64,000 bases of DNA from Naegleria gruberi (taxonomy: Eukaryota), in the NCBI GenBank assembly GCA_000004985.1, contig GG738872.1. One strand, written 5' to 3'. The first letter of the stretch is position 1, and each line of letters starts with the position of its first letter. Positions 9,534 to 27,619 of the stretch are shown piece after piece. Made by a program: the position numbers and the translations under genes. The notes beneath the pieces were generated by a model. It made no database searches. It was given only the letters and a program-made list of their open reading frames with translations, and was not told the DNA's origin.

Positions 9534-12500
9534 ATGCAACCAATAGAAAATATGTTCTCTGGTCTCCTAGATTCGAGTAACAAACAAAACGAGGACTCCT
9601 CCAATGAAGTCACTTCAGTGGACAGTCCCTCAAAATCTAAAAAAGTGTCTGGTATTAGACGTGCTGCTTCAATTCAAGTCGGATTGAGTGATTTCGAATT
9701 GAGTGGTACTAATGTGCCTAATCCAGAATCTATTTCTTTAACACATTTGAGTAAATATGCTATCACTCTGGCTGGTATGCACGAAGTAGTAGAAGAAAAG
9801 AAGGAATTTGTCAAGCTTATCAAGAGATTAGACGAAACAGCCAGTATTATTACTCAAGCACACGATATTATTTATGAGGCAATTATGCAAAATCGTCGTA
9901 TTACTAGTAGTGATGAATGGTTGGTCGATAATTTTTGGATGATCAAGGAACAAATCCACATGACAAAAAAACACTTGCCACTAGGATATGAAAAGGAAAT
10001 GCCAAAGTTGAATAATACAAAATGTGCAGGTTATCCACGTATTTATGGTATTATTTGGGAATTGATTAACTTGGTAAATGGTCAAGTAACAGAAGAGAAT
10101 ATTTTCCAATTTGTCAAATCTTATCAATCTGTCAAACCATTGACAATTGGTGAATGTTGGGGTATTGGTGTTATGCTTCGTTTAGGTCTTTTAGAAAATA
10201 TTAGACGTGTTGCTGATGGTATTATTAGCAGAAGACAAGATTGTAACCTGGCTGATGCTTGGGCAGATCGTTTATTAACTAGTGCTGAAAAGAGTAGTCG
10301 TGATGTTGTTCAAATTCTGTATCAATTATCACAAAGTGAACCTATTATTACAAATGCTTTCGTCTTACAAATTAGTCAACGTTTACAAGGTTCTGATCCT
10401 GTTCTTTCAATTGTAAATACATGGTTAGAACAACAATTGAGTATTAAGGGTATTGATATCGATCAAATTTTCAGAATGCAAAAGCAAGCTAACTCTTCTA
10501 ATCAAGTTACAATGTCATATTCTATTAACTCTTTGAGATTAATTAACAATTTTAATTGGAAAGAGTTTGTTGAAAAATTGAGTCATATGGATGTTATTCT
10601 TCGTAAGGATCCTTCTGGTATTTATTCATATCAAAATTTCCATACCAGAGATAGATGTAGACACGCTATTGAAAGAATTGCAAAGAGATTCAAGATTGAT
10701 GAAAAGCAAGTTGCCAACAAGGCACTTTCCCTAGCAAAGGAAAATCATGAAGTTTTACAGTCATGTGTTTTAGGATCACCAAGAAGAACAAGGTCTGGTA
10801 GTGATGCTGAACCTCCAAGCTCTCCTGGATCCTCTCCTACTGCTCTCTCACCTCGTAGTGCTAGTAATGTTATTAGGAATATGAATCCAGATCAAATGTA
10901 TGACATGAAACTTATTCGTAGAAAAGCTTGTATTACCTATTGGTTGCTTGAAGATGAAGGTATTAAGGAATTGCATAGAGCTTTAGGTTTTAGAATGAGT
11001 CGTTTACCATTTTCATTTGATTTAAGATTCCCAAGCTTTATTACTTCAATTATTTTCTGGACTTGCTTATTTGCTATTGCTTACATTTTCATGACAAAAC
11101 ATTCTTACCAAACACAATTTGATAGATATCTTCCATTTAGTGGAGTGGAAAGTTTGAAATTATATTTTGTTTATGAAAAGTATCTTGCCTTGGTTTTATT
11201 GTATATATCAGTTTTATTTGTAGGAAGTCAACTTGCTGTTAGTTTGACTAACATGACTTTTGTTAGACTCAAATATCCAGCATCGTTGCCATCTATGGAT
11301 TTCAGTACAACAGGTATTCCTGATGAACACAGATCTATTGTTGTAGTACCAACAATGATAACAAGTTCAGATGGTATTAATGAATTATTGTCAGATTTAC
11401 AAGGTAGATATCTTATTAACAGGGACAAGAATATTGTGTTTGGTTTAATTACTGATTTTGGAGATTCAAAGACTGAAACTACTGAAAAAGATGATGCTCT
11501 CGTCAAGCAAGTTGTTGATGGTATCAATGAATTGAACAAAATGTACACAAGAACTCCTGAAGAACAAAGATACTCCAAGACAACTTTCTTCCTCTTCCAC
11601 AGAAAGAGATTGTACAATCCAGTTGAAAAAGTTTTCATGGGTTGGGAACGTAAGAGAGGTAAATTGGCTGAATTCAATACATTTATTTTACATGGTGAAA
11701 AGGGAAGTTTCAGTCATATTATTGGTGATACTACCAATTTGAATACTGTCAAACACGTCATTACATTGGATACTGATACCATGTTACCTTCAGATGCTGC
11801 TCGTGGTTTGGTTGAAATTGCTGCTCACGTTTTGAACGAACCTGTTATTGATAATCAAACTAAACGTGTTACTCATGGTTATGGTTTGCTTCAACCTCGT
11901 GTTAGTAATGGTTTTACTGGTTCTACTAAGTCACTCTATGCTTATATGCACAGTATGGATTCTGGTTTGGATCCTTATACTAGAGAAGTTAGTGATGTTT
12001 ATCAAGATACTTTTGGTGAAGGTTCATTCATTGGAAAGGGTTTGTACAATGTTGAAACTTTTGAAACTGTTTGTGGCGAAAAGTTCCCAGAAAATAGAAT
12101 TCTCAGTCACGATTTGATTGAAGGTTGTTTTGTCAGATCTGGATTGACTTCTGGTATTGAAGTTATTGAAGATTATCCATCAAGTTATGGTGTTGAAGCC
12201 TCTAGAAGACATCGTTGGATTAGAGGTGACTGGCAAATTGCTAGTTATGCTTTCAGTCCTTTCATCTTGACTGCCAAGGGTTATGAAAAGAATACCTTGT
12301 CTGCATTGCATAGATGGAAGATTTTCGACAATTTGAGAAGATCTCTCGTTCCAGCTGCTATGACTTATTTGATTATGAGTACTGCTTTGTTCACTTCCTA
12401 TCACTCCAAGTTGCCATTCGTTGCTGTTCTCGCTGTTCTTTCAATTTATCTCATTCCAACAACAATCAATACTATTATTGATGTTGTCAAGAAACCTGAA

Positions 12501-15500
12501 GATGCTACTTGGCAAGAGCACTTTAAGAGAATCCGTTTCAATCTCTTACGTACTTTTGTTGATATTTATGTTGAATTGGTATTCACTCCTTTCGAAGCTT
12601 ACAACAATATTGATGCTATTATTCGTTGTTTATTCAGATTGTATGTTAGTGGTAAAGGTCTTTTGGAATGGACAACCTTCCAATCTGCTAGTAGTATTTA
12701 CAAGACTAATTTGTTCTTGGCCATGTCTAGATTGTTGTGGTTCCCAGTCTTGTTGACTACCTCTATTATTGCTTACATTGTCATTCAACATAATACTGCT
12801 GTTGCTTATAATGAATGGCAAACGTATGGTTTCACTAGAAGACCATTCATGTTGGCCAGTAATCTTATTACCATTATTCTCATGTTTGCCAGTTGGATTC
12901 TTTCACCATTCATTGCCTACTACTTGAGTAAGCCATTGAAGAAGAATCTCTTTGAGAGAGAAAATTTCAATGACCTCACCAAGGATGACAAGGTCTTCTT
13001 GCATGTCTTGTCTCGTAGAACTTGGAGATTCTTTGAAACATTTGTCAGAAAGGAAGATAACTATCTCCCACTCGATAACTACCAAGATTTCCCAAAGCCA
13101 ATGCTTGCTCGTAGAACCAGTCCAACTAATATTGGTCTTGCTTTGCTTGCCAATTTGGGTGGTCACGACTTTGGTTATATTACTAATAATGAATGTGTCA
13201 CTCGTATTCACAATACTTTGTCTACACTTTCCAACATGGATCGTTATAAGGGACATTTCTACAATTGGTATGATACTCAAGATTTAAGACCATTGTGGCC
13301 TAAATACATCAGTGCTGTTGACAGTGGTAACTTGGTTGGTCACTTACTCATTTTGAAGGCAGGTTTGGTTGAATTGAGCGACAACGTTCCAATTATTAAT
13401 ACTGATACTTATGTTTCTGGTTTGAGAGACAACTTGTACAGTATGCAATTCATCCTCAAAGAAGTTGAAAAGACAACCGATACTGACGAAGAAGAACTCG
13501 TTTACTTTGACATTAATGAAATCAAGCCAATGATTGAAGACTTGCACACCAAGTTGGATAACAAACCAACTAAGATTTCCAAATTGATTCGTTGGTACAC
13601 TGAAATTAAGGCCAGTTCCAAGAAATTGGAAGAAAGCTTGAATGAATCCCTCAACAAGCTTATTGAAGCCAGTAAGGATGACAGTCAAGCAGATATTGAA
13701 TGGCTCGCTGAAGACATTGAAGAAAGGTGTGAAAAGCAACTCTTATTCTATTCTCAATCATTCGTTCATCTAGTCTCTGAAATTGCTCAAGAATTGAATG
13801 AATTGGTTCCATTCTCCAAGCATTGGGATTTGCCTGAGGAATTAGTTTCACCTCCAAGCTCATTGGCTGGACTTTTAGAAAATGAAGCTATCACTCAATT
13901 CACTCAACAATTCAACAAGATGAATATTGAACAATTGACTCTCAGAGGTATTCTTGGTGTCAAGGAACAATTAGGTATTTCAAAGGTTAGTAAGGTATTG
14001 GGAAGCCTTAAAGTTACTGGTTCAACCTCTAATTTATCATCTGGACCAAAGGGAGTTGAAGCTTTGAAACGTTGGGTTACAGAATTGGAAGAATCCATTG
14101 TCAATGCTGAAAGTGAAGCCAAGAAGCGTTGTAACAAGTTGAAACGTCTCATCAATACTACTGATGATTTGATCAAGCAAGACTTTAGCTTCTTGTATAA
14201 TCCATCTCGTGATTTGCTTGTCATTGGTTACAATGTTGAATCTGACAGAATTGATCAAGCTCACTACGACATGTTCTGTTCTGAAGCTCGTCTTATCAGT
14301 TACGTTGGTATTGCTTTGGGCTATTTCCCAGTTAAACATTGGTTCTCCATGAGTCGTCTTATTACCACTCAAGGTACTCACCCAGCATTATTGTCATGGT
14401 CTGGTTCTGCCTTTGAATATTTGTTGCCACTCAACGTTATGCCAAATATTCCAGGTACTCTCCTCGATTCTACCTACCATGCTGTCGTCTTACGTCAAAT
14501 TGAATATGGTAAACAAAAGAATATTCCTTGGGGTATGAGTGAAAGTGCTTACAATTTGATGGATGCTAATCTTGTTTATCAATATGGTCCATTTGGTGTT
14601 CCAGGTTTGGGTTTGAAGAGAGGTTTGTCTAATGACTTGGTTGTTGCACCATATGCTACTGTTATGAGTTTGATGGTTCTTCCAAAACAAGCCACCAAGA
14701 ACTTGAGACGTTTGAACGAAATGAATTTCTTGGGTTGTTATGGTATGATTGAATCTGTTGACTTTACTCCTCACAGATTGAGAGGTAATATTGATGCTCA
14801 ACCAATCAAATCTTTCTTTGCTCACCACCAAGGTATGTCATTCCTCAGTTTGTTGTACTGTTTGAAGGCACAACCAATGCAAAGAAGATTTATGGCTGTT
14901 CCAGAATTTGCTGCCAACGTTTTGTTGCTTCAAGAAAAGATTCCAACAGTTCCACACATTTCCAATCCAAATGAAAAGGAAACAGAACGTTGGAAGAATG
15001 TTGGCTACAATCTCCCTTGTGCTAACAGACAATTCCAAGGTTTACACACCTATCCAGAAGTTCACATGCTCAGTAATCACGCCTTGCACGTAATGTTAAC
15101 TGTTAACGGTGGTGGTTACATTAAATATGAAGATATGAGTGTTACCAGATGGAGAGAAGATGCCACTCTTGATGGTTATGGTGTTTTGATTTATTTCAGA
15201 GATATGCAAGATAAGACTGATGTCTGGTCTGCTACATCCACACCAATCAAGGCCTCTAATGATAGTAATTATTCAGTCACTTTCAGTCAAGCTCGTGCTG
15301 AATTTAGAAGAAAACACAAGGGAATGACCACAGAAACAATTGTTACAGTTTCTCCATTGGATAATGTTGAAGTTAGACGTGTTAAATTTACCAATAATAC
15401 TAACAAGACAAAGGAAATTGAATTTACCAGTTATGGTGAAGTTGTTTTGAATCAAGGACGTGCTGATGCTGCTCACAGAGCCTTCTCTAACTTGTTTGTC

Positions 15501-18500
15501 GGTACTGAAATTCTTCATCAACAAAATGCCATCCTCTTCTACAGAAAGCAAAGAGATCCAAAAGACAAGAAGGTCTTTGGTTTCCACATTTTATTCGTTC
15601 ACGAACCAAAGAATATTATTGCCGAATCAACCTTTGAAACTGATAGAAGTAGTTTCTTAGGTAGAGGTTATACCATGCAAAGACCAAAGGCTCTCTCTGA
15701 CGACCTTGGTCCACTCTCAAATACTTCTGGTTTCCCTCTTGATCCAATCTTTGCTATTCGTCAATGTTTGAGAATCAAGCCAGGTAGAACTGTTCACATT
15801 GATTATATTACTGGTGTTGCTTTCTCCAAGGAAGACGCTATCAGTGTTATTAAGAAGTATCAAAGCAAGAAGACAACTAACCACGTTGTTAACTTTGCTT
15901 GGGTTGCCTCTGAAAAGCTTTGCTTCCGTTTGGGTATTACTGAAATTGAAGCTCAATTGTTCTCAAAGTTGGCTGGTTGTATCCTCTATTCTAATCCACG
16001 TTATCGTGCTCCACCTGGTCTTATTACCAAGAATAAGAATAATCAATCTGGTTTGTGGAAGTTTGGTATTTCTGGTGATATTCCACTCATTTTGGTTCGT
16101 GTTTGCGATCTTGAACAATCATTCTTTATGCAACAAGTTCTCCAAGCTCACGCTTATTGTAGATGCAAGGGTGTTAAATTTGATTTGGTTATTTGGAACG
16201 ATGAAACAACTCACTATCGTGACTTGCTCAATCAAACTCTCCATCATATCATGTCCCACATTCCAGGTTCAACTGATTTATTGCATCAACCTGGTGGTAT
16301 TCACCCTGTTAGAGGTGACAGTTTGACCTCATTTGAAACTGTCTTGTTGTACTCTGTTGCTCGTGTCGTTTTATCTGACAATGGTGGTAGCTTAACAGAT
16401 CAAATTAACAGAACTTCCAAGAAGGGATACGTTGTTCCTCCATTCCGTGTTATTACTCAACCTCGTGTCATTAAGGATACAATGAATACAGTTCCAAAGT
16501 TGCATGAAAGAGACCTCATTTTGAGAAACGATGTTGGTGGTTTCGATGCTAAGCGTAAGGAATATGTCATGATGTTGGGCAAGAATCATGTTACTCCAAA
16601 GCCATGGTGTAACGTTTTGGCTAACGATAGATTTGGTTCAGTCATCTCTGAAAAGGGTAGTGCTTACTCATTCTTCACTAATGCTCACGAATACAGATTG
16701 ACTCCATTTAACAATGATGCTGTCCTCGATAACTCTGGTGAAGCATTCTATATTAGAGATGAAAGCACTGGTCAATACTGGTCACCAATGCCTCAACCTG
16801 TACCAATTGATAGAGATGATTACTATTACATTTGTAGACATGGTATTGGTTACAGTACTTGGGAACATTTCCATGATGGTATTCATACTGAAACTACCAC
16901 ATTTGTTCCACAAAATGAACCTGTCAAGATTATCTTGATCCGTGTAACTAACAATAGTGGTTTTGATAGAAACTTGACTGTTACTGGTTTTGTTGAATGG
17001 GTTTTGGGTGAATTGAGAGAATTGAATGCTCCACACATTATTACTGATGTTGAAAGAACTGACAATAGTACAGCTGTTATTGCTAGAAATAACTTCCATA
17101 TTCAATTGTCTCACTTTGTTGGTTTTATGTCCGTTATTGGTCACAAGGAAGGTACAATTACTGGTGATAGAAATGAATTTATTGGAAGTAATGGTACTCT
17201 TGATAGACCTCAAGCTATGAAACAACAATACCTCTCAGGAAATGTTGGTGCTGCTTTCGATCCATGTGCTGCTATTCAAGTTCCAATCACTGTCGAAGAT
17301 GGTAAAGTTGTTGAAGTTGCATTCATGATTGGTGCCAACTATTCTAGAGATGGTGCTAAGGATGTCATTTCTCGTATTCGTAGTAACCTCATTGTTAGAC
17401 AATTATTGAACAGTGTTAAGGCCTTCTGGCACTATAATCTCAACACTATTCAAGTTGAAACTCCAAGCCCTGATTTGGATGTTTTGGCCAACGGTTGGTT
17501 GTTGTACCAAGTTTTGTCTTCTCGTATTTGGGGTAGATCTGGTTTCTATCAATCCAGTGGTGCTTTTGGTTTCAGAGATCAATTGCAAGATACTATGGCT
17601 GTTGCCTCTGTAATGCCTCAAATTTTGAGACAACAAATTCTCACCAATTGTGAACATCAATTTGAAAAAGGTGACGTATGCCATTGGTGGCACGACATTA
17701 CTAACAGTGGTGTCAGAACTACATTCAGTGACGACTACTTGTGGCTTCCACTCGCTGTTGCTCACTATTTGGAAATTACTGAAGATTACAAATTACTCCA
17801 CGAAAGAATTAGATTCTGTAAGCTCAGAGAAATTGAACCAGGTGAAGAATCAGTCTATGACAAGCTTGAATACACTGAAGAAACTGAAAGTATCTATGAA
17901 CATTGTAAGCGTGCATTGAAGTATGGTTTCAAATATGGTGCTCATGGACTTCCTCTTATGGGATGTGGTGACTGGAACGATGGTATGAATCTCGTTGGTA
18001 TTCATGGTAAAGGTGAAAGTGTTTGGTTGGCATTCTTCTTGTTCCACGTTTTGGAGAACTTTGAAAAGAATATCTTGGAAACTGAAATTAAGGATGATGA
18101 ATTCTTAGAAGAATGTAGAAAGAATCGTGAATACATCAAGGCCAACATTGAAGGACAAGCTTGGGATGGAGAATGGTATCGTAGAGCCTACTTTGATAGT
18201 GGTGAGCCTCTTGGTTCTAAGGAAAATTCTGAATGCCAAATTGACAGTTTGCCACAATCATGGGCTATTATCAGTGGTTGTGTTGATAAGAAGAGAGCTA
18301 AAATGGCCCTTACAAATGCCTATCAAAGGTTGGTCAGACATGACTTGAAGCTTATTCAATTGTTCGATCCACCACTCCAACATCAAGAACCATCTGCTGG
18401 TTACATTCAAGGTTATGCTCCTGGTGTCAGAGAAAATGGTGGTCAATATACCCATGCTTCTATTTGGTTTGCTTGGGCTTATTCCATTCTCAAGGATAAC

Positions 18501-18929
18501 AAGAAGGTTTGGGACTTGTTCGACATTTTGAATCCAATCAACCATGCCAAGACTAAGGAAGATGTTTGGAAATACAAGGTTGAACCATACGTTGTCACTG
18601 CTGATATTTACACATTGATGGATCACGAAGGTGAAGGTGGTTGGAGTTGGTTCACTGGTTCTGGTGGTTGGTTCTATAGATTAATCTTGGAAAGACTCAT
18701 TGGTATCAAGAAGCAAGGTAACTCTCTCAAATTCGATCCATGTCCAAAGGAAGATTGGAAGAAGTATAACATTAATTATCAACATGGCAAGACTGCTTAC
18801 CAAATTCAAGTTACAAGATCTGAAGAAAATGTCATGATTGTTGATGGTGTTAAGAGAGCTGATCCAACTCGTATTCCACTTGTTGATGACGGAAAGACTC
18901 ACAAGGTTGAAATTTATTACAAGTATTAA
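9534..18929 (+). CDS. cgs: cyclic beta-1,2-glucan synthase-like protein (GT84 glycosyltransferase + multi-TM + GH94 glycoside-phosphorylase-like C-terminal domain)
   Basis: Single uninterrupted ORF 9342..18929; the first ATG is at 9534. The GT domain has the motifs HVITLDTDTMLP (DxD, about 11768), GYGLLQPRV (about 11892) and RRHRWIRGDWQ (Q/RxxRW, about 12204). It is flanked by TM clusters at about 11040-11230 and 12290-12960. The C-terminal third is GH94 (cellobiose-phosphorylase-like), with GAFGFRDQLQDT, GCGDWNDGMN (17961-17990) and RENGGQYTHASIW (18429-18467). The domain order matches bacterial Cgs/NdvB/ChvB, which are about 2,800-2,900 aa. Confidence 0.85.
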   Translation: MQPIENMFSGLLDSSNKQNEDSSNEVTSVDSPSKSKKVSGIRRAASIQVGLSDFELSGTNVPNPESISLTHLSKYAITLAGMHEVVEEKKEFVKLIKRLDETASIITQAHDIIYEAIMQNRRITSSDEWLVDNFWMIKEQIHMTKKHLPLGYEKEMPKLNNTKCAGYPRIYGIIWELINLVNGQVTEENIFQFVKSYQSVKPLTIGECWGIGVMLRLGLLENIRRVADGIISRRQDCNLADAWADRLLTSAEKSSRDVVQILYQLSQSEPIITNAFVLQISQRLQGSDPVLSIVNTWLEQQLSIKGIDIDQIFRMQKQANSSNQVTMSYSINSLRLINNFNWKEFVEKLSHMDVILRKDPSGIYSYQNFHTRDRCRHAIERIAKRFKIDEKQVANKALSLAKENHEVLQSCVLGSPRRTRSGSDAEPPSSPGSSPTALSPRSASNVIRNMNPDQMYDMKLIRRKACITYWLLEDEGIKELHRALGFRMSRLPFSFDLRFPSFITSIIFWTCLFAIAYIFMTKHSYQTQFDRYLPFSGVESLKLYFVYEKYLALVLLYISVLFVGSQLAVSLTNMTFVRLKYPASLPSMDFSTTGIPDEHRSIVVVPTMITSSDGINELLSDLQGRYLINRDKNIVFGLITDFGDSKTETTEKDDALVKQVVDGINELNKMYTRTPEEQRYSKTTFFLFHRKRLYNPVEKVFMGWERKRGKLAEFNTFILHGEKGSFSHIIGDTTNLNTVKHVITLDTDTMLPSDAARGLVEIAAHVLNEPVIDNQTKRVTHGYGLLQPRVSNGFTGSTKSLYAYMHSMDSGLDPYTREVSDVYQDTFGEGSFIGKGLYNVETFETVCGEKFPENRILSHDLIEGCFVRSGLTSGIEVIEDYPSSYGVEASRRHRWIRGDWQIASYAFSPFILTAKGYEKNTLSALHRWKIFDNLRRSLVPAAMTYLIMSTALFTSYHSKLPFVAVLAVLSIYLIPTTINTIIDVVKKPEDATWQEHFKRIRFNLLRTFVDIYVELVFTPFEAYNNIDAIIRCLFRLYVSGKGLLEWTTFQSASSIYKTNLFLAMSRLLWFPVLLTTSIIAYIVIQHNTAVAYNEWQTYGFTRRPFMLASNLITIILMFASWILSPFIAYYLSKPLKKNLFERENFNDLTKDDKVFLHVLSRRTWRFFETFVRKEDNYLPLDNYQDFPKPMLARRTSPTNIGLALLANLGGHDFGYITNNECVTRIHNTLSTLSNMDRYKGHFYNWYDTQDLRPLWPKYISAVDSGNLVGHLLILKAGLVELSDNVPIINTDTYVSGLRDNLYSMQFILKEVEKTTDTDEEELVYFDINEIKPMIEDLHTKLDNKPTKISKLIRWYTEIKASSKKLEESLNESLNKLIEASKDDSQADIEWLAEDIEERCEKQLLFYSQSFVHLVSEIAQELNELVPFSKHWDLPEELVSPPSSLAGLLENEAITQFTQQFNKMNIEQLTLRGILGVKEQLGISKVSKVLGSLKVTGSTSNLSSGPKGVEALKRWVTELEESIVNAESEAKKRCNKLKRLINTTDDLIKQDFSFLYNPSRDLLVIGYNVESDRIDQAHYDMFCSEARLISYVGIALGYFPVKHWFSMSRLITTQGTHPALLSWSGSAFEYLLPLNVMPNIPGTLLDSTYHAVVLRQIEYGKQKNIPWGMSESAYNLMDANLVYQYGPFGVPGLGLKRGLSNDLVVAPYATVMSLMVLPKQATKNLRRLNEMNFLGCYGMIESVDFTPHRLRGNIDAQPIKSFFAHHQGMSFLSLLYCLKAQPMQRRFMAVPEFAANVLLLQEKIPTVPHISNPNEKETERWKNVGYNLPCANRQFQGLHTYPEVHMLSNHALHVMLTVNGGGYIKYEDMSVTRWREDATLDGYGVLIYFRDMQDKTDVWSATSTPIKASNDSNYSVTFSQARAEFRRKHKGMTTETIVTVSPLDNVEVRRVKFTNNTNKTKEIEFTSYGEVVLNQGRADAAHRAFSNLFVGTEILHQQNAILFYRKQRDPKDKKVFGFHILFVHEPKNIIAESTFETDRSSFLGRGYTMQRPKALSDDLGPLSNTSGFPLDPIFAIRQCLRIKPGRTVHIDYITGVAFSKEDAISVIKKYQSKKTTNHVVNFAWVASEKLCFRLGITEIEAQLFSKLAGCILYSNPRYRAPPGLITKNKNNQSGLWKFGISGDIPLILVRVCDLEQSFFMQQVLQAHAYCRCKGVKFDLVIWNDETTHYRDLLNQTLHHIMSHIPGSTDLLHQPGGIHPVRGDSLTSFETVLLYSVARVVLSDNGGSLTDQINRTSKKGYVVPPFRVITQPRVIKDTMNTVPKLHERDLILRNDVGGFDAKRKEYVMMLGKNHVTPKPWCNVLANDRFGSVISEKGSAYSFFTNAHEYRLTPFNNDAVLDNSGEAFYIRDESTGQYWSPMPQPVPIDRDDYYYICRHGIGYSTWEHFHDGIHTETTTFVPQNEPVKIILIRVTNNSGFDRNLTVTGFVEWVLGELRELNAPHIITDVERTDNSTAVIARNNFHIQLSHFVGFMSVIGHKEGTITGDRNEFIGSNGTLDRPQAMKQQYLSGNVGAAFDPCAAIQVPITVEDGKVVEVAFMIGANYSRDGAKDVISRIRSNLIVRQLLNSVKAFWHYNLNTIQVETPSPDLDVLANGWLLYQVLSSRIWGRSGFYQSSGAFGFRDQLQDTMAVASVMPQILRQQILTNCEHQFEKGDVCHWWHDITNSGVRTTFSDDYLWLPLAVAHYLEITEDYKLLHERIRFCKLREIEPGEESVYDKLEYTEETESIYEHCKRALKYGFKYGAHGLPLMGCGDWNDGMNLVGIHGKGESVWLAFFLFHVLENFEKNILETEIKDDEFLEECRKNREYIKANIEGQAWDGEWYRRAYFDSGEPLGSKENSECQIDSLPQSWAIISGCVDKKRAKMALTNAYQRLVRHDLKLIQLFDPPLQHQEPSAGYIQGYAPGVRENGGQYTHASIWFAWAYSILKDNKKVWDLFDILNPINHAKTKEDVWKYKVEPYVVTADIYTLMDHEGEGGWSWFTGSGGWFYRLILERLIGIKKQGNSLKFDPCPKEDWKKYNINYQHGKTAYQIQVTRSEENVMIVDGVKRADPTRIPLVDDGKTHKVEIYYKY

Positions 18930-19084: not shown

Positions 19085-20003
19085 TTAATCATCAGCAATA
19101 TAAACTTTCTTTCTGGAAAATATTTTGATGGCTTCGTCAATTTCTTGTAATTTCCTTTCCATATTATTTTTCTTTTGTTGTAAGAATTGAGTATCACACA
19201 ACATTGGAAGCTTATTGATGGCACCCTGCACTTCTCTCTTACTCTTCTCGAGTTCAGTAAGAGTTTCAAGTCTATCTTCTTCAGAAACTAATCTCATTCC
19301 AGGAGGACATTCATCCTTCTTCTTTTGTTCTTCCTTTTCTTTTTGTTCCTTTTCATGTTTGATTGCTTTTCTATCTTTAATGCTATGAATATTTAGCAAA
19401 GAAATTTCAAGATTTAAAAACTTACTATTGAGGCACTCTTCCAAAATCTTCTGGCTTTTCAAAGTCTTCCTTTACAGCTTTCGATGCCACTTTGGCTTCT
19501 CCCTTTTTAGCGATTGATTTCAAATCCTTGGTTGCGTTTTGTACAATATAATTTTTAGAGTCTCTATGTGTGACTGGTTCATTAAATTCCTCCTTCTTAG
19601 GAATTGGTGGTTTCTTCTCGTTGGCTAACATTTCCTTCTCCTTCTTTACTTCAAATGCAATTTCCTTCTTTTTAATATTTTGTTCGGTTATTCTCTCCCT
19701 ATTTGCACCTGATTTCAAATAATTTTCATTCACTGGATTCTCGGGAGTGTAATCTTGTGCTTTAATATCCTTCACCTTTGATTCAACCTCCTTGTATTTT
19801 TGTAGTTTAAATTCTTCCTTCTTGATAGCATCCTTTTCCTTCTTTAATTTATTTTCGTGTTCCTTTTCTTTAAGCGCTTTAAGATTTTGATGCATATGAT
19901 TTTTAGGTATGATACCTTGCTTTTCCTGTACTCCTCTGTATCCGTTCACAGGATGAAGAAAATTTGAAATTTGACTTGAATCCGAATGATGGTGTTTGAT
20001 CAT
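19085..20003 (-). CDS. enkurin-domain protein (Lys/Glu-rich coiled-coil N-terminus); exons 20003..19426 and 19382..19085
   Basis: The C-terminal segment ECPPGMRLVSEEDRLETLTELEKSKREVQGAINKLPMLCDTQFLQQKKNNMERKLQEIDEAIKIFSRKKVYI matches the enkurin-domain pattern. The two ORFs are joined by a 43-nt GTAAGT..catAG intron in frame (..GRVPQ-Y-IKDRKAIKHE..). Confidence 0.6.
19383..19425 (-). other. spliceosomal intron (43 nt, GTAAGT..AG)
   Basis: Donor GTAAGTTTTT overlaps the in-frame TAG. The acceptor is ttcatAG. It has the same 43-nt length as the intron at 1330..1372. Confidence 0.55.
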
Positions 20004-20236: not shown

Positions 20237-20800
20237 CTACTGTCTCTTTTTGCCAGTCATGAGGAATTGAGTAATAAATCTTACCAAGGAAAGAAATGAG
20301 TTTTCCTTATTGGATCTAATTGAATTTTTTGCTAATTTATCACCAATTCCTAAAATTGAGGTCGAGAGAGGTATTATGAGTCCAATATGTAGTAAGACAG
20401 TAACTAGATGAAGAAAGTTGTTGAAATGAAAAACTCTCTTCATCAAGGTACCAGCACTCGAAGAAATATCCCAAGCATGGTTTGGATTGACCAGAGTTCT
20501 ATTCGGATGCATGTTTTGTTCCAATAATACGACCCACTGTTCTTCATCCTTTTCATTCATTTCGGAATTAGATGGCTTTTGCCTCTTTTTTAATTCATTC
20601 ACATAATAATAGGGAGGGCCTCCCAAATGATCATATCGGAGTGAATGATAAGCTAATTGTTGAAGAGGATCAACCAAGTCAATATCCTTGTTATAATTCG
20701 GAGGAACATATCGTTCACCCAAACTACTTCCACCTCCAAATTCCCTCCTCAAATCCCAATACATCTCCTCCAATTTATTATTGGATTTCCTTTGCATCAT
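20237..20800 (-). CDS. hypothetical protein with C-terminal TM helix (possibly partial; upstream exon not excluded)
   Basis: ORF 20237..20845. The first ATG (MMQRK) is at 20800. The C-terminal hydrophobic helix is LVTVLLHIGLIIPLSTSILGIG. I recognise no domain. Confidence 0.35.
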   Translation of the reverse strand: MMQRKSNNKLEEMYWDLRREFGGGSSLGERYVPPNYNKDIDLVDPLQQLAYHSLRYDHLGGPPYYYVNELKKRQKPSNSEMNEKDEEQWVVLLEQNMHPNRTLVNPNHAWDISSSAGTLMKRVFHFNNFLHLVTVLLHIGLIIPLSTSILGIGDKLAKNSIRSNKENSFLSLVRFITQFLMTGKKRQ

Positions 20801-21384
20801 TTTCAAATTAATAATTAATTTTGACTGGTACTGATGACAATCCAAAATATTAAATAGTATTTTCTACCTCCGAAAAATAGTTCATTCACCTTCTGTATAT
20901 TATTATCAGACTACCATCAACAATCCAAGAAGCGACAACTTTGTTTGTGGGAAGAAATTGGACTCTTTGTGAACGTTATTTTTTTCGCTGTGTGCGTAAC
21001 GATTTGGTTTTCGCGGGCAATTTGTTACGAATTGTTACCAAAAGTACAAGTAAAATTCTCTCCAAAAAAAACTTTCTCTCTTTCACCCACTACGGCAGTT
21101 AAGAGCTCTTCAAATACAACAACAATAGCAAGAGAACATTATTTTTGACTGGTCCACTTTAAAACCTGTGTACAAACAACAAGGAACAGTGTGCTGCATC
21201 AAGGTCGCATCAGAAAAACTTGTTTTACTAGGCGAAAGGTTTTGAAATTTACAGTCATTATCATCAAGTACCGGTAATAAGGTCGAAAATTGCTCTCATC
21301 AACATCATCATCATCTATTTATTGGACAATTTGTAGATAATCCATCATTAATTTGATTGGATATGAATATAATATAATACAACA

Positions 21385-23883
21385 ATGGAAGATAAATCTG
21401 CAATACATAACGATAACTATCAGGGGAGTGCTGTCGTTCTTGCTCGACTCAACAAACGGTCTTCTTCTATTGTTATTGGACATCAATCTAGTGATGACGA
21501 CATATCGATAGATGCAGAAGAGAATAGAAATAGCTCTCCCTTTTATAAATCTGTAAAGTTTTCGCTCTTAATGTTGGTAGGAGCTTCAGTACTACTCACA
21601 GTTGTACTTTTAACATTAATATGGATACCAACTTTTAGTTCTAGTATTTATACCCTAAGTGAAGCCAATAGGCTCAAAGAATTTAACTCTATAGTTTCCT
21701 TTGTTTCACAAACTGTGCGAGAGATTGTGATGGTTTCAGAGTCAAGTAAAAATTTGCTCAAATATGACTTTAATGTATCAGATGTGTCTGTAGTCGAACG
21801 AGCCATGTACCAAATTTATAAGAGCGAACAAAAATTTCACAAAGGCTTAACCTATTCGACCTACATTGGTGATTCATTTGGCAATTTGGTTGGCATTGTT
21901 GACTTGAATGGAAAGCACATGTTTGTACTTGTAGATAGTAACAACACGCAGTTATTTGAGTGTGTAGATATTTGGAAAAATGATTTGTGTGTTAGATCGC
22001 AAACACCCAACACCAGTGCACCAAGATTGGACATGAGTGTTGTTGTGGAGAGAGGGACCTTATTCTTAAACTCGCCCTCCTTCACTCTAAGCTATGTAGA
22101 TTCAAGGTTTCCCTACACTGTCTATATTACATTAGTGAATAGTGTGAGTAAGGCTGAAGATGCTTCCCTAGGAATTCCCTTTTCATTTTATTTTGGTTAT
22201 GATATCTCAACGACACGAATTTCGAACTATCTCAATAGTGAATCCTCAGATATACCCAACTCATTGGCCTACATTCTAGAGTCATCAACAGGCAATATTA
22301 TTTCCAGTAGTTTCAATGATTTTTACTATGGAACACCAAATGCTAGATCCTCAATTACTAATTTCCCAGGTGGAGGAAGAAATAAGTATATTGCGGAGAC
22401 TATTCTCGGCAACTTGAATTCAAACATTAGAAATCTGAGGTGTGGTGAGCAGTTGTTTCTCTCACCAGGTGATGAATACATAACAGCCCACAGAATTTGC
22501 CTCGAAGAGAACATTGATTGGATTATTGTTTTTGCAGTGAAACAATGGACCTATGTTTCTACAATGGTTGTGGCAATTGTGGTTGCTCTTGTTGCAAGTA
22601 CAGTTGTTACAATTATTGGATTCATCATTGGAATTTTCTTTTCTTTGAAAATGGTGGAGCCATTCGACTCTCTCATTGCAATGGTCAGGTCCGTCTCTTA
22701 TATGGACTTTGCTCTTCCAAAGATTGAACCATCCTTCTTCTCTGAATTGTCAGATTTACAACAAAACTTTTTACTCATGATTAGTAAAATTAAGAGCTAC
22801 AGAGCCTTCATTCCAAGTCACCTTCTTTCAGAATTGGATGCTCCTAATGAGAAGGCTCTTGTGGAGGATATTCAAAATAAGAAACCATCTGGAAATTTGG
22901 TGAGAAGACTCTCCTCTTCAAAGAGATTATCTCAGGGAGCACTAAGGAAGACTATGGTATTTGCACAGAAGGATAGATTTGCTCTCGGATTGGAAGACAG
23001 ATGTATCAGCCAAGTCTGTATTTACATTCAAGGATTCAAAACAATAACAGAAGATTGTGATTTGAAAGACATTGTCTTTTTATTGGGAGAAATTTATGAT
23101 TCCCTTATAAAGACAAGCAAAACCACAGGAGGTCAAATTGGATTATTCGAAAATAACTTGGTAACCATGTCTTGGAACGCAACAAAGGATCAACCAAAAC
23201 ATGAACTTAAGGCACTAAGCACAGCAACCTCATTCTTACAAAAAATTAACATTATCAAAGAAACCAGATGGAGATCGTATGAAGTCTTCAGAACATTCCC
23301 AAAACTCTTAGAGAATATTCATTTTAGAGTATCAGTTTCATCCCAATTGTGTCAGTGTGGTAATATTGGTACTGAAGAATTTAAGAGTTTTACAATCCTA
23401 GGAAGTATACAAAAGAACCTTTTCAGTCTTGTAAATATTGCAAAACAATTCAATCTTGGAGTGTTAGTGACTGAAGATATTCACTCTGCATGTGTAACAA
23501 ATTTTACAATGAGATATATTGAAAATGTAGACCTCGCTGTAGATGTAAGAAGGGCAAGAAATAATTTTGCAGAACCTCTCAAACAAAAAAGCACAAAACT
23601 ATATGAAGTTGGAGAAAGTACAGCTGTTAATATTGATGAGTGGATGTACGAGCTTCAAGAAAAGGAAAAGAAGGAAAGGTGGTTAAATTACAATAGAGCT
23701 ACCTTGTCCTTCTTTGAAAAGGATTACAATGAAGCAATTACATTAATGGATGAATTTTTGAAAAAGTTTCCAGATGATTTACCAGCACTTCACTTTAAAG
23801 CAAAATGTTATTCATACTTGGGAAACATCTCTCATGTTGAATCTCTAGAGGTATTAAGAAAGAACAGTTTCAAAGATAAATAA
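21385..23883 (+). CDS. receptor-type class III nucleotidyl cyclase-homology protein (TM - ectodomain - TM - cyclase-like domain - TPR-like tail); catalytic residues appear substituted
   Basis: ATG at 21385. TM1 is at about 21565-21640, followed by an ectodomain of about 290 aa and TM2 at about 22516-22650. The cyclase-homology domain (about 23000-23500) aligns with the class III pattern: VCIYIQGFKTIT against V.ILFSDIVGFT, and RVSVSSQLCQCGNIGTEEFKSFTILGSIQKNLFSLVNIAKQ..LGVLVTEDI against [42 protein letters not shown]. The metal-binding Asp positions are replaced. Confidence 0.6.
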   Translation: MEDKSAIHNDNYQGSAVVLARLNKRSSSIVIGHQSSDDDISIDAEENRNSSPFYKSVKFSLLMLVGASVLLTVVLLTLIWIPTFSSSIYTLSEANRLKEFNSIVSFVSQTVREIVMVSESSKNLLKYDFNVSDVSVVERAMYQIYKSEQKFHKGLTYSTYIGDSFGNLVGIVDLNGKHMFVLVDSNNTQLFECVDIWKNDLCVRSQTPNTSAPRLDMSVVVERGTLFLNSPSFTLSYVDSRFPYTVYITLVNSVSKAEDASLGIPFSFYFGYDISTTRISNYLNSESSDIPNSLAYILESSTGNIISSSFNDFYYGTPNARSSITNFPGGGRNKYIAETILGNLNSNIRNLRCGEQLFLSPGDEYITAHRICLEENIDWIIVFAVKQWTYVSTMVVAIVVALVASTVVTIIGFIIGIFFSLKMVEPFDSLIAMVRSVSYMDFALPKIEPSFFSELSDLQQNFLLMISKIKSYRAFIPSHLLSELDAPNEKALVEDIQNKKPSGNLVRRLSSSKRLSQGALRKTMVFAQKDRFALGLEDRCISQVCIYIQGFKTITEDCDLKDIVFLLGEIYDSLIKTSKTTGGQIGLFENNLVTMSWNATKDQPKHELKALSTATSFLQKINIIKETRWRSYEVFRTFPKLLENIHFRVSVSSQLCQCGNIGTEEFKSFTILGSIQKNLFSLVNIAKQFNLGVLVTEDIHSACVTNFTMRYIENVDLAVDVRRARNNFAEPLKQKSTKLYEVGESTAVNIDEWMYELQEKEKKERWLNYNRATLSFFEKDYNEAITLMDEFLKKFPDDLPALHFKAKCYSYLGNISHVESLEVLRKNSFKDK

Positions 23884-23979: not shown

Positions 23980-26820
23980 ATGGGTAAACATCAAGACAGC
24001 ACTGCATCATCTGCTCCCAATAATCTGTCTTCCAGTTGGAAGATTTGTATGGTGTTGATTTTCTCCGTTATTTTATTTAATTTATTACATGGTGTGAAAT
24101 CTTCATCCGATCCAACAACTACCACCACAATTACTGCCAATGATTTTATTAGAACAATAGCAACAGAACAATATGATCGAACATTGTTACCTACTAGAAG
24201 AAATCAAGCAAGTGTCATGTCTCTGATGCTTCCTAAATTCATTAACATTCAACCATCAGGTCTTCAAAATTCCTTTCCCTATAAACTCTTCCTCTACAGA
24301 GAGAATGAACAACAAGACTCAACACAGGAACAACAACAGAAGGTTAGATTGGATGGTTTTCCACTCTTGTTCATTCCACAGGCACAACATGGATCCTATG
24401 CAGATGCCAAATCACTTGCATCAACTTTATATGAATTGAATGGACATTCAGAATATAGAAAAGAGGTCTATACTCAAGCTAGTTATATTCATCAAATGAC
24501 CAATGACATGACCTCTTCCAATAGATTTGGTTTCAATGACACCAATGATAAATCATCAGAAGAAAAGAATGATGAAGGTCAATTGATTGGATTTGATGTT
24601 TTCACAATTGACTTTAATGATGGAGAATGGAGTAATTTTCACAGTGGACTTCAAAAGAGACAAGAGGAATACATTAAACAAATTGTAGAGTTTATTCTAA
24701 AGGGACTTTATAAGGGATATCACAACAAGTTAATGATTGTTTCGTATAATAGTGAGCATGGATTTGAGAAAGTTTCGGATAGTGTTTATTTGGCTGTTAC
24801 AATTCAAGCTGGAAATGGAAAGATTTTGTGGAATATGCCAGGAAAGGAAAAGAAGGAAGTTAAAATTCCTGAAATGATTAACATTTTGGGAACTAGTACC
24901 ATTCCACATATTTTCTCAAATATGGACAAGTCTGCAATGAGATGGACTAAACAATTGCAACAAGTTTTGGCAAGTATTTTGCTTAGTATTGGAAATTCAG
25001 GTGCCAATTCTGAACATGGCAATTTGGACATGTCTGTAGAGGATAGAGATTTGATCATTTCACAATATCTTTCTCTCAAAACCAATTCAATTCCAGATTC
25101 TCTCTTGTGGGACGACTATGCAGCCAAGAGAGAAAATGTTAAGAAGGTTACACTCGGTAATAAGGAAATTGTCGAGTTGAGTCTTGGAAAGATTGAAACT
25201 GTTAAATTTGGAAATCAAAAGGTCTTGTATTACATGTTGAATACTGATGCTTTGCAAGAGGAGGTCAATACCATCTATATTTTCACAAACTTCTTCAGAC
25301 ACGAAGTGGATATCTTTATGAGCGAGGACCATAAAGTGGGTGGAGAAGATAATGGACCTACTGTCGTCTCTAAATCAATTTTCAAACTCTACAAGCAACA
25401 AATTACAATGTTGCCTTACTTGGAAACTGATGAAGATCATTTGGAAAGATACAATTCCAATCAACAAGTTGCCAAGGTCATGATTAAGATTCCTAATATT
25501 AAGGATCAAGTTGCTAAGAGAAAGATTTATGTGAGACTCACTAGTTTGTATACCAATGAAGAATTATCAATGGGAGCTGAGGAATCCTATCCGGATCGTT
25601 ACTTGGTTGCCTCTTCTCATCCAGGAACATGGAAGGAAACATCAAAGAACTTTATCAAACCGCATGTCATTGAGAATACTAGTGATTTATCTGTTGATTT
25701 CTGGAAGAGCGGTGTTAGTGTTAAATCTCCAAGTCCATACATTGTTTTGACTCATTTACCATTGACCTACTCTTACAAAATGTCAGTGATTAATACTCAC
25801 TGCTCTGATTTGTATCCAGTTGTGCAATTCCATTATGGTAGCATGTTTGAGTTTGAATCTCAATATATTCCATTGAGATATTGTGGAGAAAATATCATTG
25901 ATCTTCAATTCCTCAATTTGACTGACATTTCCGATAGAAATGATGAGAAATTGAAGGGAATTGCCGTCTACTTTTTGAATACCAATGAAAATCAAACAGA
26001 ATTTGAAGTGAGCTTCAAGGTAGATTTGGAAGAATCTTTCATTCACACCATTACCACTCAACATCTTCACACATTGGCTTGTGATATCTTTGTCATTGTT
26101 GTCATATTGCTTGCTTTCGAACATTTGAAATTGTCTCCAATTGTCTCATCCATTCTAATGCTCATTTTGTGTCCAGCAATTGCCTTCTTGCAATATCTCA
26201 CTATGGGTAAAGTTTTATACATTACCGACATGAGCTTGATTAATTTGAGTGTTTGCTTGATTTATTCATGGGTTGCTGTCTTGTTGGTCATTCTTGCATT
26301 GAGAATTATCACTCTAGTTTTTGGAGTGGCTGCAAAACTCATTCCTTCCTCTTTTGTAATGGCCATTTCTGTTGCTCTCTTCACAGCAAGTTTTGCTTTT
26401 GATCCAGCTCTTCCTTTCACTCTCTTGACATTCATTTATATTTTCAAACATTCATCTCAATCAAACATGACAAGTGTCTTGTACATGTTAGTTTCCTTAG
26501 TATTAATGGGTCCAAGTACTTTTGCTTTTATTAAGGAATGGAATTATTGGATTGAATTGAAGAAACCAACACAAACCATCTTTTCAGTTTTACCTGCATC
26601 TGTCTTGACAAGAGTTTGCTCACCAATCATGTTGATTCCATTCTATTTGAATGCATTGGAATTGAGATGGTTAAAGGTGAAATCATTTGGAAATTTGGTT
26701 GGCTTGTTGACTTTATTGAGTGGAATTTTGTTGGCAATTGTGGCCAAGATTGAAACGTATTATATTATTCCAGTGTTGGCATTTGTTGTCATTTTGAATG
26801 TTGTTTCGACCAGAAATTAA
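23980..26820 (+). CDS. hypothetical large membrane glycoprotein: signal peptide, ectodomain of about 640 aa, and a C-terminal 7-9 TM bundle
   Basis: ATG at 23980. The N-terminus has an internal hydrophobic signal (ICMVLIFSVILFNLL). There are many N-x-S/T sites. The last roughly 300 aa contain 7-9 hydrophobic helices (LACDIFVIVVILLAF, IVSSILMLILCPAIAFLQYL, and so on). Confidence 0.55.
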   Translation: MGKHQDSTASSAPNNLSSSWKICMVLIFSVILFNLLHGVKSSSDPTTTTTITANDFIRTIATEQYDRTLLPTRRNQASVMSLMLPKFINIQPSGLQNSFPYKLFLYRENEQQDSTQEQQQKVRLDGFPLLFIPQAQHGSYADAKSLASTLYELNGHSEYRKEVYTQASYIHQMTNDMTSSNRFGFNDTNDKSSEEKNDEGQLIGFDVFTIDFNDGEWSNFHSGLQKRQEEYIKQIVEFILKGLYKGYHNKLMIVSYNSEHGFEKVSDSVYLAVTIQAGNGKILWNMPGKEKKEVKIPEMINILGTSTIPHIFSNMDKSAMRWTKQLQQVLASILLSIGNSGANSEHGNLDMSVEDRDLIISQYLSLKTNSIPDSLLWDDYAAKRENVKKVTLGNKEIVELSLGKIETVKFGNQKVLYYMLNTDALQEEVNTIYIFTNFFRHEVDIFMSEDHKVGGEDNGPTVVSKSIFKLYKQQITMLPYLETDEDHLERYNSNQQVAKVMIKIPNIKDQVAKRKIYVRLTSLYTNEELSMGAEESYPDRYLVASSHPGTWKETSKNFIKPHVIENTSDLSVDFWKSGVSVKSPSPYIVLTHLPLTYSYKMSVINTHCSDLYPVVQFHYGSMFEFESQYIPLRYCGENIIDLQFLNLTDISDRNDEKLKGIAVYFLNTNENQTEFEVSFKVDLEESFIHTITTQHLHTLACDIFVIVVILLAFEHLKLSPIVSSILMLILCPAIAFLQYLTMGKVLYITDMSLINLSVCLIYSWVAVLLVILALRIITLVFGVAAKLIPSSFVMAISVALFTASFAFDPALPFTLLTFIYIFKHSSQSNMTSVLYMLVSLVLMGPSTFAFIKEWNYWIELKKPTQTIFSVLPASVLTRVCSPIMLIPFYLNALELRWLKVKSFGNLVGLLTLLSGILLAIVAKIETYYIIPVLAFVVILNVVSTRN

Positions 26821-26896: not shown

Positions 26897-27619
26897 TTAT
26901 TGAGAAGCAGATGATGAATTTGATGATGAATTATTAGCAGCAACTTCAGAAGAAAGTAATTGATCGAACCAATAATCATTGACAACTCTCTTTGATTTGG
27001 TCAACAAGGTTTGCAATTCTTTCAAGCTCTCTACTTGCTCGTCAATTAATCTTTGAAGGTACCCAGTTAATGCAAAGTCCTTTTGTTGTTCAGCTCTGTG
27101 ATACAAGTGTGAAATTTTATCATAAACCATTCTTTCAGTTTCGATTGCCAATTCGAACCCTTTAGTAGCCATATGTAATTGACCAGTACTATCACTTGAA
27201 TCAAAAACGTCTGCAAACTCAGGTGGTGCATTGATCACAGTGAATTTAACCTTTCCTCCTCTAGAATTTTGATAATTAATCAAAGATTGAGCATGTGTTC
27301 TTTCTTCACTTGCCTGGTTGTGGAAATAACTTGCAACACCTGGCAAGGCAATAGTTGGCTGAGCAAAATAAGTTGCCAATGCTGTGTAAAAGTAACTAGC
27401 ATTCAATTCATGATTAATTTGTTCATTGACAAGTTTTTCACATTCAACAGTGTAATTGTAACGAATCTTGTTGAGAGTTGGATTAGAATTGTCGAGTTGG
27501 AAGGATTGGGAGTGGAAAGAACGAAGGGATGTTGTTGATGAGAAAAAGTTGGTTGTATGGGTGTTTCTGATTGACTTCGTGGTCAATTGGGTGAGAATTC
27601 GTCTAGTGTTGTTGATCAT
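26897..27619 (-). CDS. ferritin (ferroxidase, ferritin-like diiron fold) with predicted mitochondrial presequence
   Basis: ATG at 27619. The H-ferritin core matches well: QINHELNASYFYTALATYF.., SEERTHAQSLINYQNSRGGKV, ATKGFELAIETERMV. The N-terminal 40 aa are rich in Arg/Ser/Thr and lack acidic residues (MINNTRRILTQLTTKSIRNTHTT..). The C-terminus has an Asn/Ser-rich tail. Confidence 0.8.
   Translation of the reverse strand: MINNTRRILTQLTTKSIRNTHTTNFFSSTTSLRSFHSQSFQLDNSNPTLNKIRYNYTVECEKLVNEQINHELNASYFYTALATYFAQPTIALPGVASYFHNQASEERTHAQSLINYQNSRGGKVKFTVINAPPEFADVFDSSDSTGQLHMATKGFELAIETERMVYDKISHLYHRAEQQKDFALTGYLQRLIDEQVESLKELQTLLTKSKRVVNDYWFDQLLSSEVAANNSSSNSSSASQ

Follow-up and report, generated by a model that had tools for sequence, protein, structure and literature searches.

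A receptor-type class III cyclase homologue of Naegleria gruberi that has lost most of its catalytic residues: a probable pseudo-cyclase sensor

If a membrane receptor is laid out like a sensor cyclase and has nonetheless lost nearly all of the residues by which such an enzyme works, does it still make a cyclic nucleotide, and if not, what is its cyclase domain for? This question is raised by an 832-amino-acid (aa) protein encoded in a 64,000-nucleotide stretch of Naegleria gruberi contig GG738872.1 (assembly GCA_000004985.1), the whole of which we refer to as the 64-kb window. Our analysis of its sequence and of a predicted structure supports the view that the protein is a receptor-type homologue of the class III cyclases whose catalytic site has degenerated, and is probably a pseudo-cyclase sensor. 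It belongs, as a single orthologue group, to a large paralogue family specific to Naegleria/Willaertia, and the same features recur throughout that family. From end to end it consists of a first transmembrane segment (TM1), a double-Cache (dCache) domain, a second transmembrane segment (TM2), a HAMP domain, a segment resembling the cyclase-transducer element (CTE), a disordered insertion of 46 residues rich in Ser and Lys, a cyclase-homology domain (CHD) and a TPR-like tail. The reading frame and the parts of it on which the catalytic question turns are the following:

21385..23883, plus strand: complete intronless open reading frame (ORF) of 832 aa plus stop, from the ORF list, corresponding to an N. 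gruberi 'predicted protein'
22978..23628, plus strand: class III CHD, catalytically degenerate, residues ~532-748
23020..23043, plus strand: former metal-site motif 1, I-Y-I-Q-G-F-K-T, residues 546-553, with Y547 in place of the first metal-binding Asp (D1), from alignments
23143..23160, plus strand: former metal/substrate motif 2, L-F-E-N-N-L, residues 587-592, with L587 in place of the substrate Lys and N591 in place of the second metal-binding Asp (D2), from alignments
23392..23430, plus strand: T670 and the alpha4 motif G673-S-I-Q-K-N-L-F-S-L682, with K677 in place of the catalytic Asn and S681 in place of the Arg, from ungapped alignments

The ORF matches an N. gruberi "predicted protein" without functional annotation in the protein database (100% identity, 100% coverage), and has full-length orthologues in two other species, with an identity of 51% for N. 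lovaniensis and 50% for N. fowleri. Its kinship with the cyclases becomes clear through the family. On the query sequence there was no match to Pfam Guanylate_cyc, Cache or HAMP, even at E<=10 on isolated segments, and the closest PDB match of the single sequence was CyaB of Pseudomonas aeruginosa (E 4.6e-4). A profile built from 28 family members matched the solved class III cyclases Cya2 (E 1.3e-15), CyaB (2.8e-15) and CyaC (2e-10), and Pfam Guanylate_cyc recognises 10 of these 28 aligned sequences. The AlphaFold2 model, a monomer built on an alignment of 105 relatives, has a mean predicted local distance difference test score (pLDDT) of 85.5, with disorder confined to residues 1-50 and 489-527; an earlier model from the alignment of the three orthologues alone reached a pLDDT of 32.5 and was set aside. 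The CHD of the model has the beta-alpha-alpha-beta-beta-alpha-beta core and the beta4-beta5 dimerisation arm of the class III fold, and the hairpin of this arm, G659-N660-x-G662 (the GNxG arm), is invariant across the family. Structure comparison with Foldseek (TM-scores of 0.80-0.83) supports the architecture and the folds.

The catalytic register was set by ungapped alignment through every motif to three canonical relatives (P0115, P0141 and P0153), each of which has all six catalytic residues. The query keeps one of the six, T670, the substrate Thr of class IIIb enzymes (D/T position), and the other five are replaced. At the first metal site, the canonical F-x-D-I-x-G-F-T aligns with C-I-Y-I-Q-G-F-K, and the predicted beta1 (534-549) and alpha1 (from 551) are in line with the canonical topology at this motif. 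At the second, D-K-[FY]-x-G-D aligns with G-L-F-E-N-N, N590-N591 forming the turn of the beta2-beta3 hairpin in the model. E589 is the only acidic residue remaining in the former metal site. Further downstream, Y-T-x-I-G-D-x-x-N-x-A-S-R-L aligns with F-T-I-L-G-S-I-Q-K-N-L-F-S-L. We also considered an alignment with a one-residue gap that would keep N678 as the catalytic Asn, and rejected it: the ungapped register is backed by the profile alignment, by the three canonical relatives and by the start of alpha4 at 675, two residues past G673. What a competent class III cyclase has, the query lacks: both metal-binding Asp are gone, the substrate pair, which consists of Lys or Glu four positions ahead of D2 and of Asp, Thr or Cys three positions ahead of the Gly of GDxVN, has L587 in the first place even though T670 is kept in the second, and the Asn/Arg pair reads K677/S681.

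These results bear on a previous, sequence-only reading of the locus, which had proposed a class III cyclase homologue, had taken IYIQGFKT and LFENNL for the two altered metal motifs, and had regarded VNIAKQ as the counterpart of VNxASR. The homology holds by virtue of the family-profile matches and the CHD fold, and the ungapped alignments place Y547 and N591 at the two Asp positions as that reading supposed. VNIAKQ (683-688) was misplaced, as it lies six residues downstream of the true counterpart, G673-SIQKNLFS-L682; the loss of the Arg was seen correctly. The retention of T670 and the sharing of the degeneracy by the whole family had been overlooked. Neither intact metal-binding Asp and substrate-specifying residues nor a failure to match the cyclases, the two outcomes that this reading had set against itself, was seen in the alignments.

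Class III cyclases use a two-metal mechanism, and their CHDs work as head-to-tail dimers in which one subunit gives the two Asp and the other gives the Lys, the D/T residue, the Asn and the Arg. As the query has lost the Asp pair and, from the second set, everything except the D/T residue, cyclisation of ATP or GTP by this mechanism is not expected, and to judge from its residues the CHD most likely makes no cyclic nucleotide. The degenerate domain is nevertheless far from decaying. CHD identity among the three orthologues (56-59%) is the highest of all domains, and Q549, E589, N590, N591, T670, K677, N678 and L682 are invariant; the D1 column reads Y/Y/F and the D2 column N/N/N. In the comparison of N. 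gruberi with N. fowleri, synonymous differences have reached saturation (proportion of synonymous differences, pS, ~0.75-0.95), and the dN/dS ratio is for this reason not quantifiable. The proportion of nonsynonymous differences (pN) is lowest in the CHD (0.26), followed by HAMP/CTE (0.29), the tail (0.41) and the linker (0.43, the highest). As judged from this pattern of conservation, the CHD is maintained by selection, which excludes a decaying pseudogene. The orthology of the N. fowleri protein is supported by gene order: in that species, genes for a PGAP1-family protein and a RhoGEF lie a few kb downstream of it, and a PGAP1-like gene (23980..26820) is the immediate downstream neighbour of the 832-aa ORF within the 64-kb window.

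The degeneracy extends well beyond one orthologue group. An exhaustive HMMER search over 1.84 billion cluster representatives gave 1127 relatives with E<=1e-3 and 57 with E<=1e-30, a good number of which span the full length; the relatives discussed here are mostly cluster representatives, and the subfamily boundaries are heuristic, drawn from hit rank. Each of the 107 non-canonical representatives that cover the CHD has between none and four of the six canonical residues, and the 50 closest have between none and three. None of these 50 has Asp in the D1 column or Lys in the Lys column, and the family as a whole lacks the substrate Lys and the transition-state Arg. At the old metal site, the close subfamily has a motif of its own, F-E-N-(D/N): the E589 column is acidic in 45 of the 50 (36 Glu, 9 Asp) and the N590 column is Asn in 41, while the N678 column, one residue off the canonical Asn, is Asn in 45. 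An acidic triad at positions 549, 589 and 591 occurs in 21 of the 50 close paralogue clusters and is absent from the orthologue group of the query, which has E589 only.

The taxonomy of the family rests on 30 members looked up by cluster; all those that are named come from N. gruberi, N. lovaniensis, N. fowleri or Willaertia magna, with at least six distinct 50%-identity clusters in N. gruberi. Three W. magna members (P0048, P0185 and P0186; ABK040_004191, _004173 and _004192) fall into one 90%-identity cluster and lie on the same 349-kb contig, two of them with adjacent locus tags, which points to a recent tandem duplication of the receptor family in Willaertia. The more distant family members are environmental sequences. 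One distant environmental branch (P0065, P0077, P0078, P0081, P0091 and others; 1150-1300 aa) has about 400 extra N-terminal residues before TM1, which contain ankyrin repeats (Ank_2, E 1e-41, in 9 of the 28 aligned members), and its CHD is still more degenerate, with 'FPD' replacing FxDIxGF. The distant member P0106 (7271-8830) lies on the environmental JGI contig Ga0606064_0204, which is eukaryote-like and carries Ras, Kelch and galactosyltransferase genes. About 10 kb downstream of P0106 on this contig, a separate 866-aa gene has a Pfam-positive Guanylate_cyc domain (L001 18596-18830), so that degenerate and recognisable cyclase genes coexist in one eukaryote.

What feeds this altered domain is a sensor and transducer of a familiar kind, whose elements, together with the two termini and the linker, are as follows:

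21385..21549, plus strand: N-terminal cytoplasmic segment, residues 1-55, predicted to be disordered (pLDDT <50 for 1-50)
21550..21639, plus strand: TM1 or signal anchor, residues ~56-85 (hydropathy peak 2.78; helix)
21640..22548, plus strand: extracellular dCache sensor domain, residues ~86-388 (structure comparison)
22549..22644, plus strand: TM2, residues ~389-420 (hydropathy; AlphaFold2 helix 387-438 continuous into the first HAMP helix, AS1)
22645..22794, plus strand: HAMP domain, residues ~421-470, helix-connector-helix (hhalign, conserved positions, AlphaFold2 helices)
22795..22839, plus strand: CTE-like segment S-Y-R-A-F-I-P-S-H-L-L-S-E-L, residues 471-485 (alignment to canonical relatives)
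22840..22977, plus strand: disordered Ser/Lys/Arg-rich insertion, residues 486-531, between the CTE and beta1 of the CHD (pLDDT <50 for 489-527)
22903..22923, plus strand: R-R-L-S-S-S-K, residues 507-513, a basophilic-kinase (RRxS) consensus within the linker (orthologue alignment)
23629..23880, plus strand: C-terminal helical TPR-like tail, residues 749-832, opening with D-E-W-M-Y-E-L (AlphaFold2 helices; sub-threshold in Pfam)

The N-terminal segment is 36-44% identical among the three orthologues. From TM1, an unbroken helix (57-126 in the model) leads into the ectodomain, which consists of a long N-terminal helix and two tandem PDC (PAS-like) modules and is bounded by the two TM helices. 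The Pfam Cache profiles do not match the 832-aa query; MCP-like_PDC_1 matches 4 of the 28 aligned family members (best E 6.6e-5), and the family profile matches Mlp24/Mlp37 weakly (E ~5e-3). The HAMP profile of Pfam likewise gave no match to the query alone. Compared by hhalign with P0157, an environmental cyclase in which Pfam finds dCache_1, HAMP (PF00672) and Guanylate_cyc, the family profile aligned from TM2 through HAMP into the CHD with a probability of 97.6% (E 4e-12). The two predicted HAMP helices span 387-438 and 453-473, and the positions conserved in the family are P426, E454, Q459, F462 and M465, of which P426 (in AS1) and E454 (at the start of AS2, the second helix) are near-invariant.

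Residues 471-485 align with RSFSRFVPKEIVSKL of P0115 and RSFGRYVPADVVRAL of P0153, in which the CTE has its canonical form RSFGRYVP...; the motif is described in PMC5995499. Y472, F475, P477, H479 and L481 are conserved family-wide, and the Arg of the variant S-Y-R-A-F-I-P stands one residue earlier than in the canonical FGRY. By homology, this half of the protein is a dimeric sensor-transducer of the bacterial type, dCache-TM-HAMP followed by a CTE-like segment. The sequence-only reading had already described TM / ectodomain / TM topology and had guessed at a Cache-like ectodomain; both agree with the hydrophobic segments at ~56-85 and 389-420 around an ectodomain of ~300 aa and with the double Cache found by structure comparison. 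Its domain list was sound for these parts and for the CHD, and missed the HAMP domain, the CTE, the 46-residue insertion and the tail.

Between the CTE and the CHD the protein departs from this plan. In the alignment with P0115 there is a gap opposite the 486-531 insertion, and Pro477 of the CTE and the D1 column stand 70 residues apart in the query and, at the median, 75 apart in the family, compared with 29 in the canonical P0115 and P0141. The transducer-to-CHD distance, fixed and short in CTE cyclases, is thus not preserved in the 832-aa protein. Within the linker, the site RR(L/I)SS(S/R)K has R507, R508, S510, S511 and K513 in common between all three orthologues, although the linker is otherwise the most variable part of the protein, with 30-35% identity; RRLSSSK is a putative phosphorylation site. 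At the other end of the CHD, the tail forms four predicted helices (753-777, 781-794, 799-812 and 815-831), and D751, E752, W753, Y755, E756, W766, A784 and D798 are conserved family-wide. In Pfam, the tail scores 20.9 bits for TPR_2, where the cut-off is 27, and 21.3 bits for TPR_14, where it is 23.5; with E ~3.5e-4 each, the two matches stay below threshold. A tail of this kind (...FPDD.P) is common to the query and the canonical environmental cyclase P0115.

The explanation that we favour for these observations, and hold to be reasonably probable as a whole, is a dCache-HAMP sensor in which a non-catalytic CHD and the tail serve as a ligand-controlled binding platform. The dimeric extracellular double Cache would bind a hypothetical small ligand, and the signal would run through TM2 and HAMP into the CTE. 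The CHD would receive it with its class III fold and dimerisation hairpin kept and without the metal Asp pair, the Lys, the Asn and the Arg; its pseudo-active-site groove (Q549, E589-N590-N591, K667, T670 and K677-N678), together with the TPR-like tail, would then probably form a ligand-controlled platform that binds a partner protein, a nucleotide or both. The linker, rich in Ser, may loosen the CTE-CHD coupling that is rigid in normal cyclases, and with its RRLSSSK site could add regulation, probably via phosphorylation. The earlier proposal of a pseudo-cyclase sensor stands as regards the degenerate site, with five of six residues replaced. Several points weigh against our explanation. The catalytic inactivity itself is deduced from the missing canonical residues, and pseudoenzymes sometimes use relocated ones. 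The conserved E589 faces the former metal site, N678 is one residue from the catalytic Asn position, K667 is one residue from the position of a conserved phosphate-contacting Arg, and T670 is kept, so that the CHD may bind a nucleotide or even show weak non-canonical catalysis. The TPR assignment of the tail falls short of the Pfam threshold, and the partner, the ligand and the phosphorylation of the scheme are hypothetical.

The same remnants of the active site are the starting point for two of the rival explanations. The CHD could still be an enzyme with non-canonical chemistry, in which a relocated acidic set (549, E589 and 591) replaces the Asp pair and cyclises or transfers a nucleotide. 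The acidic and Asn columns of the close subfamily and the triad in 21 of its 50 clusters look conserved, unlike random decay, and the domain also retains T670 and the phosphate-loop Gly-Phe. The query and its orthologues have only one acidic residue of the triad, however (Q549, E589 and N591 being invariant), the substrate Lys and transition-state Arg are missing family-wide, and to our knowledge no class III cyclase functions without both metal-binding Asp. We consider this chemistry, which the sequence-only reading had left as an option, very unlikely for the query with its single acidic residue, and more plausible for the paralogues that have three. Alternatively, the CHD could be a nucleotide-sensing module that binds ATP, GTP or a cyclic nucleotide without turnover and joins the energy or second-messenger state of the cell with the extracellular signal. 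There is a solved precedent for a class III adenylyl cyclase-like domain that only binds ATP (6yii), and T670, K667, N678 and the G550-F551 phosphate-loop backbone are conserved in a pseudo-site that is invariant among orthologues. Yet the site has neither the Lys that selects the purine, nor the two metal ligands, nor the Arg that binds the triphosphate, which makes an affinity for NTP-metal doubtful, and the idea overlaps with the binding platform rather than excluding it; as an explanation in its own right we find it improbable. Hardly less improbable is that the dead CHD docks onto a competent Naegleria cyclase as a regulatory heterodimer partner, inhibiting it or tuning it in a ligand-dependent manner. 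CHDs do dimerise head-to-tail, the hairpin for doing so is invariant family-wide, the Naegleria pangenome paper counts at least 81 adenylate/guanylate cyclases (PMC9928731), and on the environmental contig described above a distant family member has a Pfam-positive cyclase gene ~10 kb away. Complementation, the form in which heterodimerisation would restore catalysis, is impossible since the query has neither the Asp pair nor the Lys/Asn/Arg set, so that of the heterodimer option raised from the sequence alone an inhibitory or regulatory role on an active partner is what survives: neither composite site could be completed, and the effect could be inhibitory only. Pfam scans of the ORFs of the 64-kb window found no canonical cyclase gene there, and homodimerisation through dCache, TM and HAMP is predicted from the complete sensor-transducer module of the protein itself. 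Finally, almost no credence can be given to a decaying gene or annotation artefact without function. Pfam recognises none of the signalling domains and the gene is unannotated; against this, the 832-codon ORF is intact, full-length orthologues with synteny exist in three species, pN is far below the saturated pS and lowest in the CHD, the AlphaFold2 model is confident and there are dozens of conserved paralogues.

Going further than the binding platform, one could see here a new class of eukaryotic surface receptor, in which a cyclase fold that has ceased to make cyclic nucleotides is re-purposed to give a bacterial dCache-HAMP sensor an output independent of second messengers; we regard this as unlikely, as we do the accompanying proposal that the remodelled groove (F-E-N-D, with the acidic triad in many paralogues) and the TPR-like tail bind a new ligand or partner or catalyse a different reaction. 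If true, it would mean a cyclase-type receptor output without a second messenger, diversified into dozens of paralogues for environmental sensing.

The other genes of the 64-kb window are of separate interest. Directly upstream of the 832-aa ORF are two Lys/Glu-rich ORFs on the minus strand (19085-20003 and 20237-20845) without a Pfam match. A single 3195-aa ORF (9342-18929, plus strand) has a Glycoamylase domain together with the supersandwich (E 1.5e-151) and catalytic (E 7e-106) domains of GH94. Bacterial cyclic beta-1,2-glucan synthases (NdvB/Cgs type) are built in this way; for a eukaryote the arrangement is unusual, and horizontal transfer is possible. On the minus strand, an uninterrupted 4884-aa ORF (46500-61154) that contains a REJ domain (E 1.5e-38) and many EGF / teneurin-type EGF repeats encodes a giant surface protein of the polycystin-1/REJ-like kind, and a ferritin (26897-27619; Pfam E 1e-27) is extended at its N-terminus by a stretch of ~60 residues with a high content of Ser, Thr, Arg and Asn, possibly an organelle-targeting peptide. 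An ORF of the formate/nitrite transporter (FNT) family, a mostly prokaryotic family, lies at 3551-4291 on the plus strand (E 9e-47); as it begins at profile position 66, it probably lacks its genuine start or an exon further upstream.

Degenerate CHDs as such are already known. Our literature searches found no account of this gene, or of any eukaryotic family of dCache-HAMP receptors that combines a CHD degenerate in all members with a disordered insertion throughout the family and a conserved replacement motif; such a family seems to be undescribed. The Naegleria cyclase counts quoted above probably include many proteins that are unable to make cyclic nucleotides, in which case the size of cyclic nucleotide signalling in these amoebae would need revision. 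A bacterial-type sensor architecture has been kept, expanded and, on our interpretation, re-purposed in a eukaryote, which would offer a tractable system for studying what a cyclase domain does once it is dead and still conserved. The brain-eating amoeba N. fowleri has one orthologue and many paralogues of the receptor; being surface-exposed and lineage-restricted, these could interest diagnostics or pharmacology, and we know of no animal counterpart with the same receptor architecture.

The closest known systems are the bacterial-type dCache-HAMP class IIIb adenylate cyclases (P0115, P0153 and P0157; CyaB 3r5g, Cya2 2w01 and CyaC 1wc1). Unlike them, the query has five of six catalytic residues replaced and F-E-N-(D/N) instead of x-G-D, and its family has a disordered Ser-rich insertion of 40-60 residues, a CTE Arg shifted by one and a eukaryotic host. 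The class III adenylyl cyclase-like ATP-binding protein of P. aeruginosa (6yii) is structurally much farther from the query than the true cyclases are, and is, we presume, a soluble bacterial transcriptional regulator and not a membrane receptor like the query. The structural neighbours also include the C1/C2 forskolin site of the mammalian transmembrane adenylyl cyclases and the alpha/beta soluble guanylate cyclase (1cs4, 3uvj and 1ab8). In these, an active-site-like CHD surface that has lost its catalytic residues serves regulation, which is their likeness to the N. gruberi protein; their subunits keep complementary halves and one site is active, whereas the query chain has lost both halves and has no active site. 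A wider analogy is offered by LapD, PelD and FimX, sensor proteins whose degenerate GGDEF/EAL domain survives as a module for binding or scaffolding.

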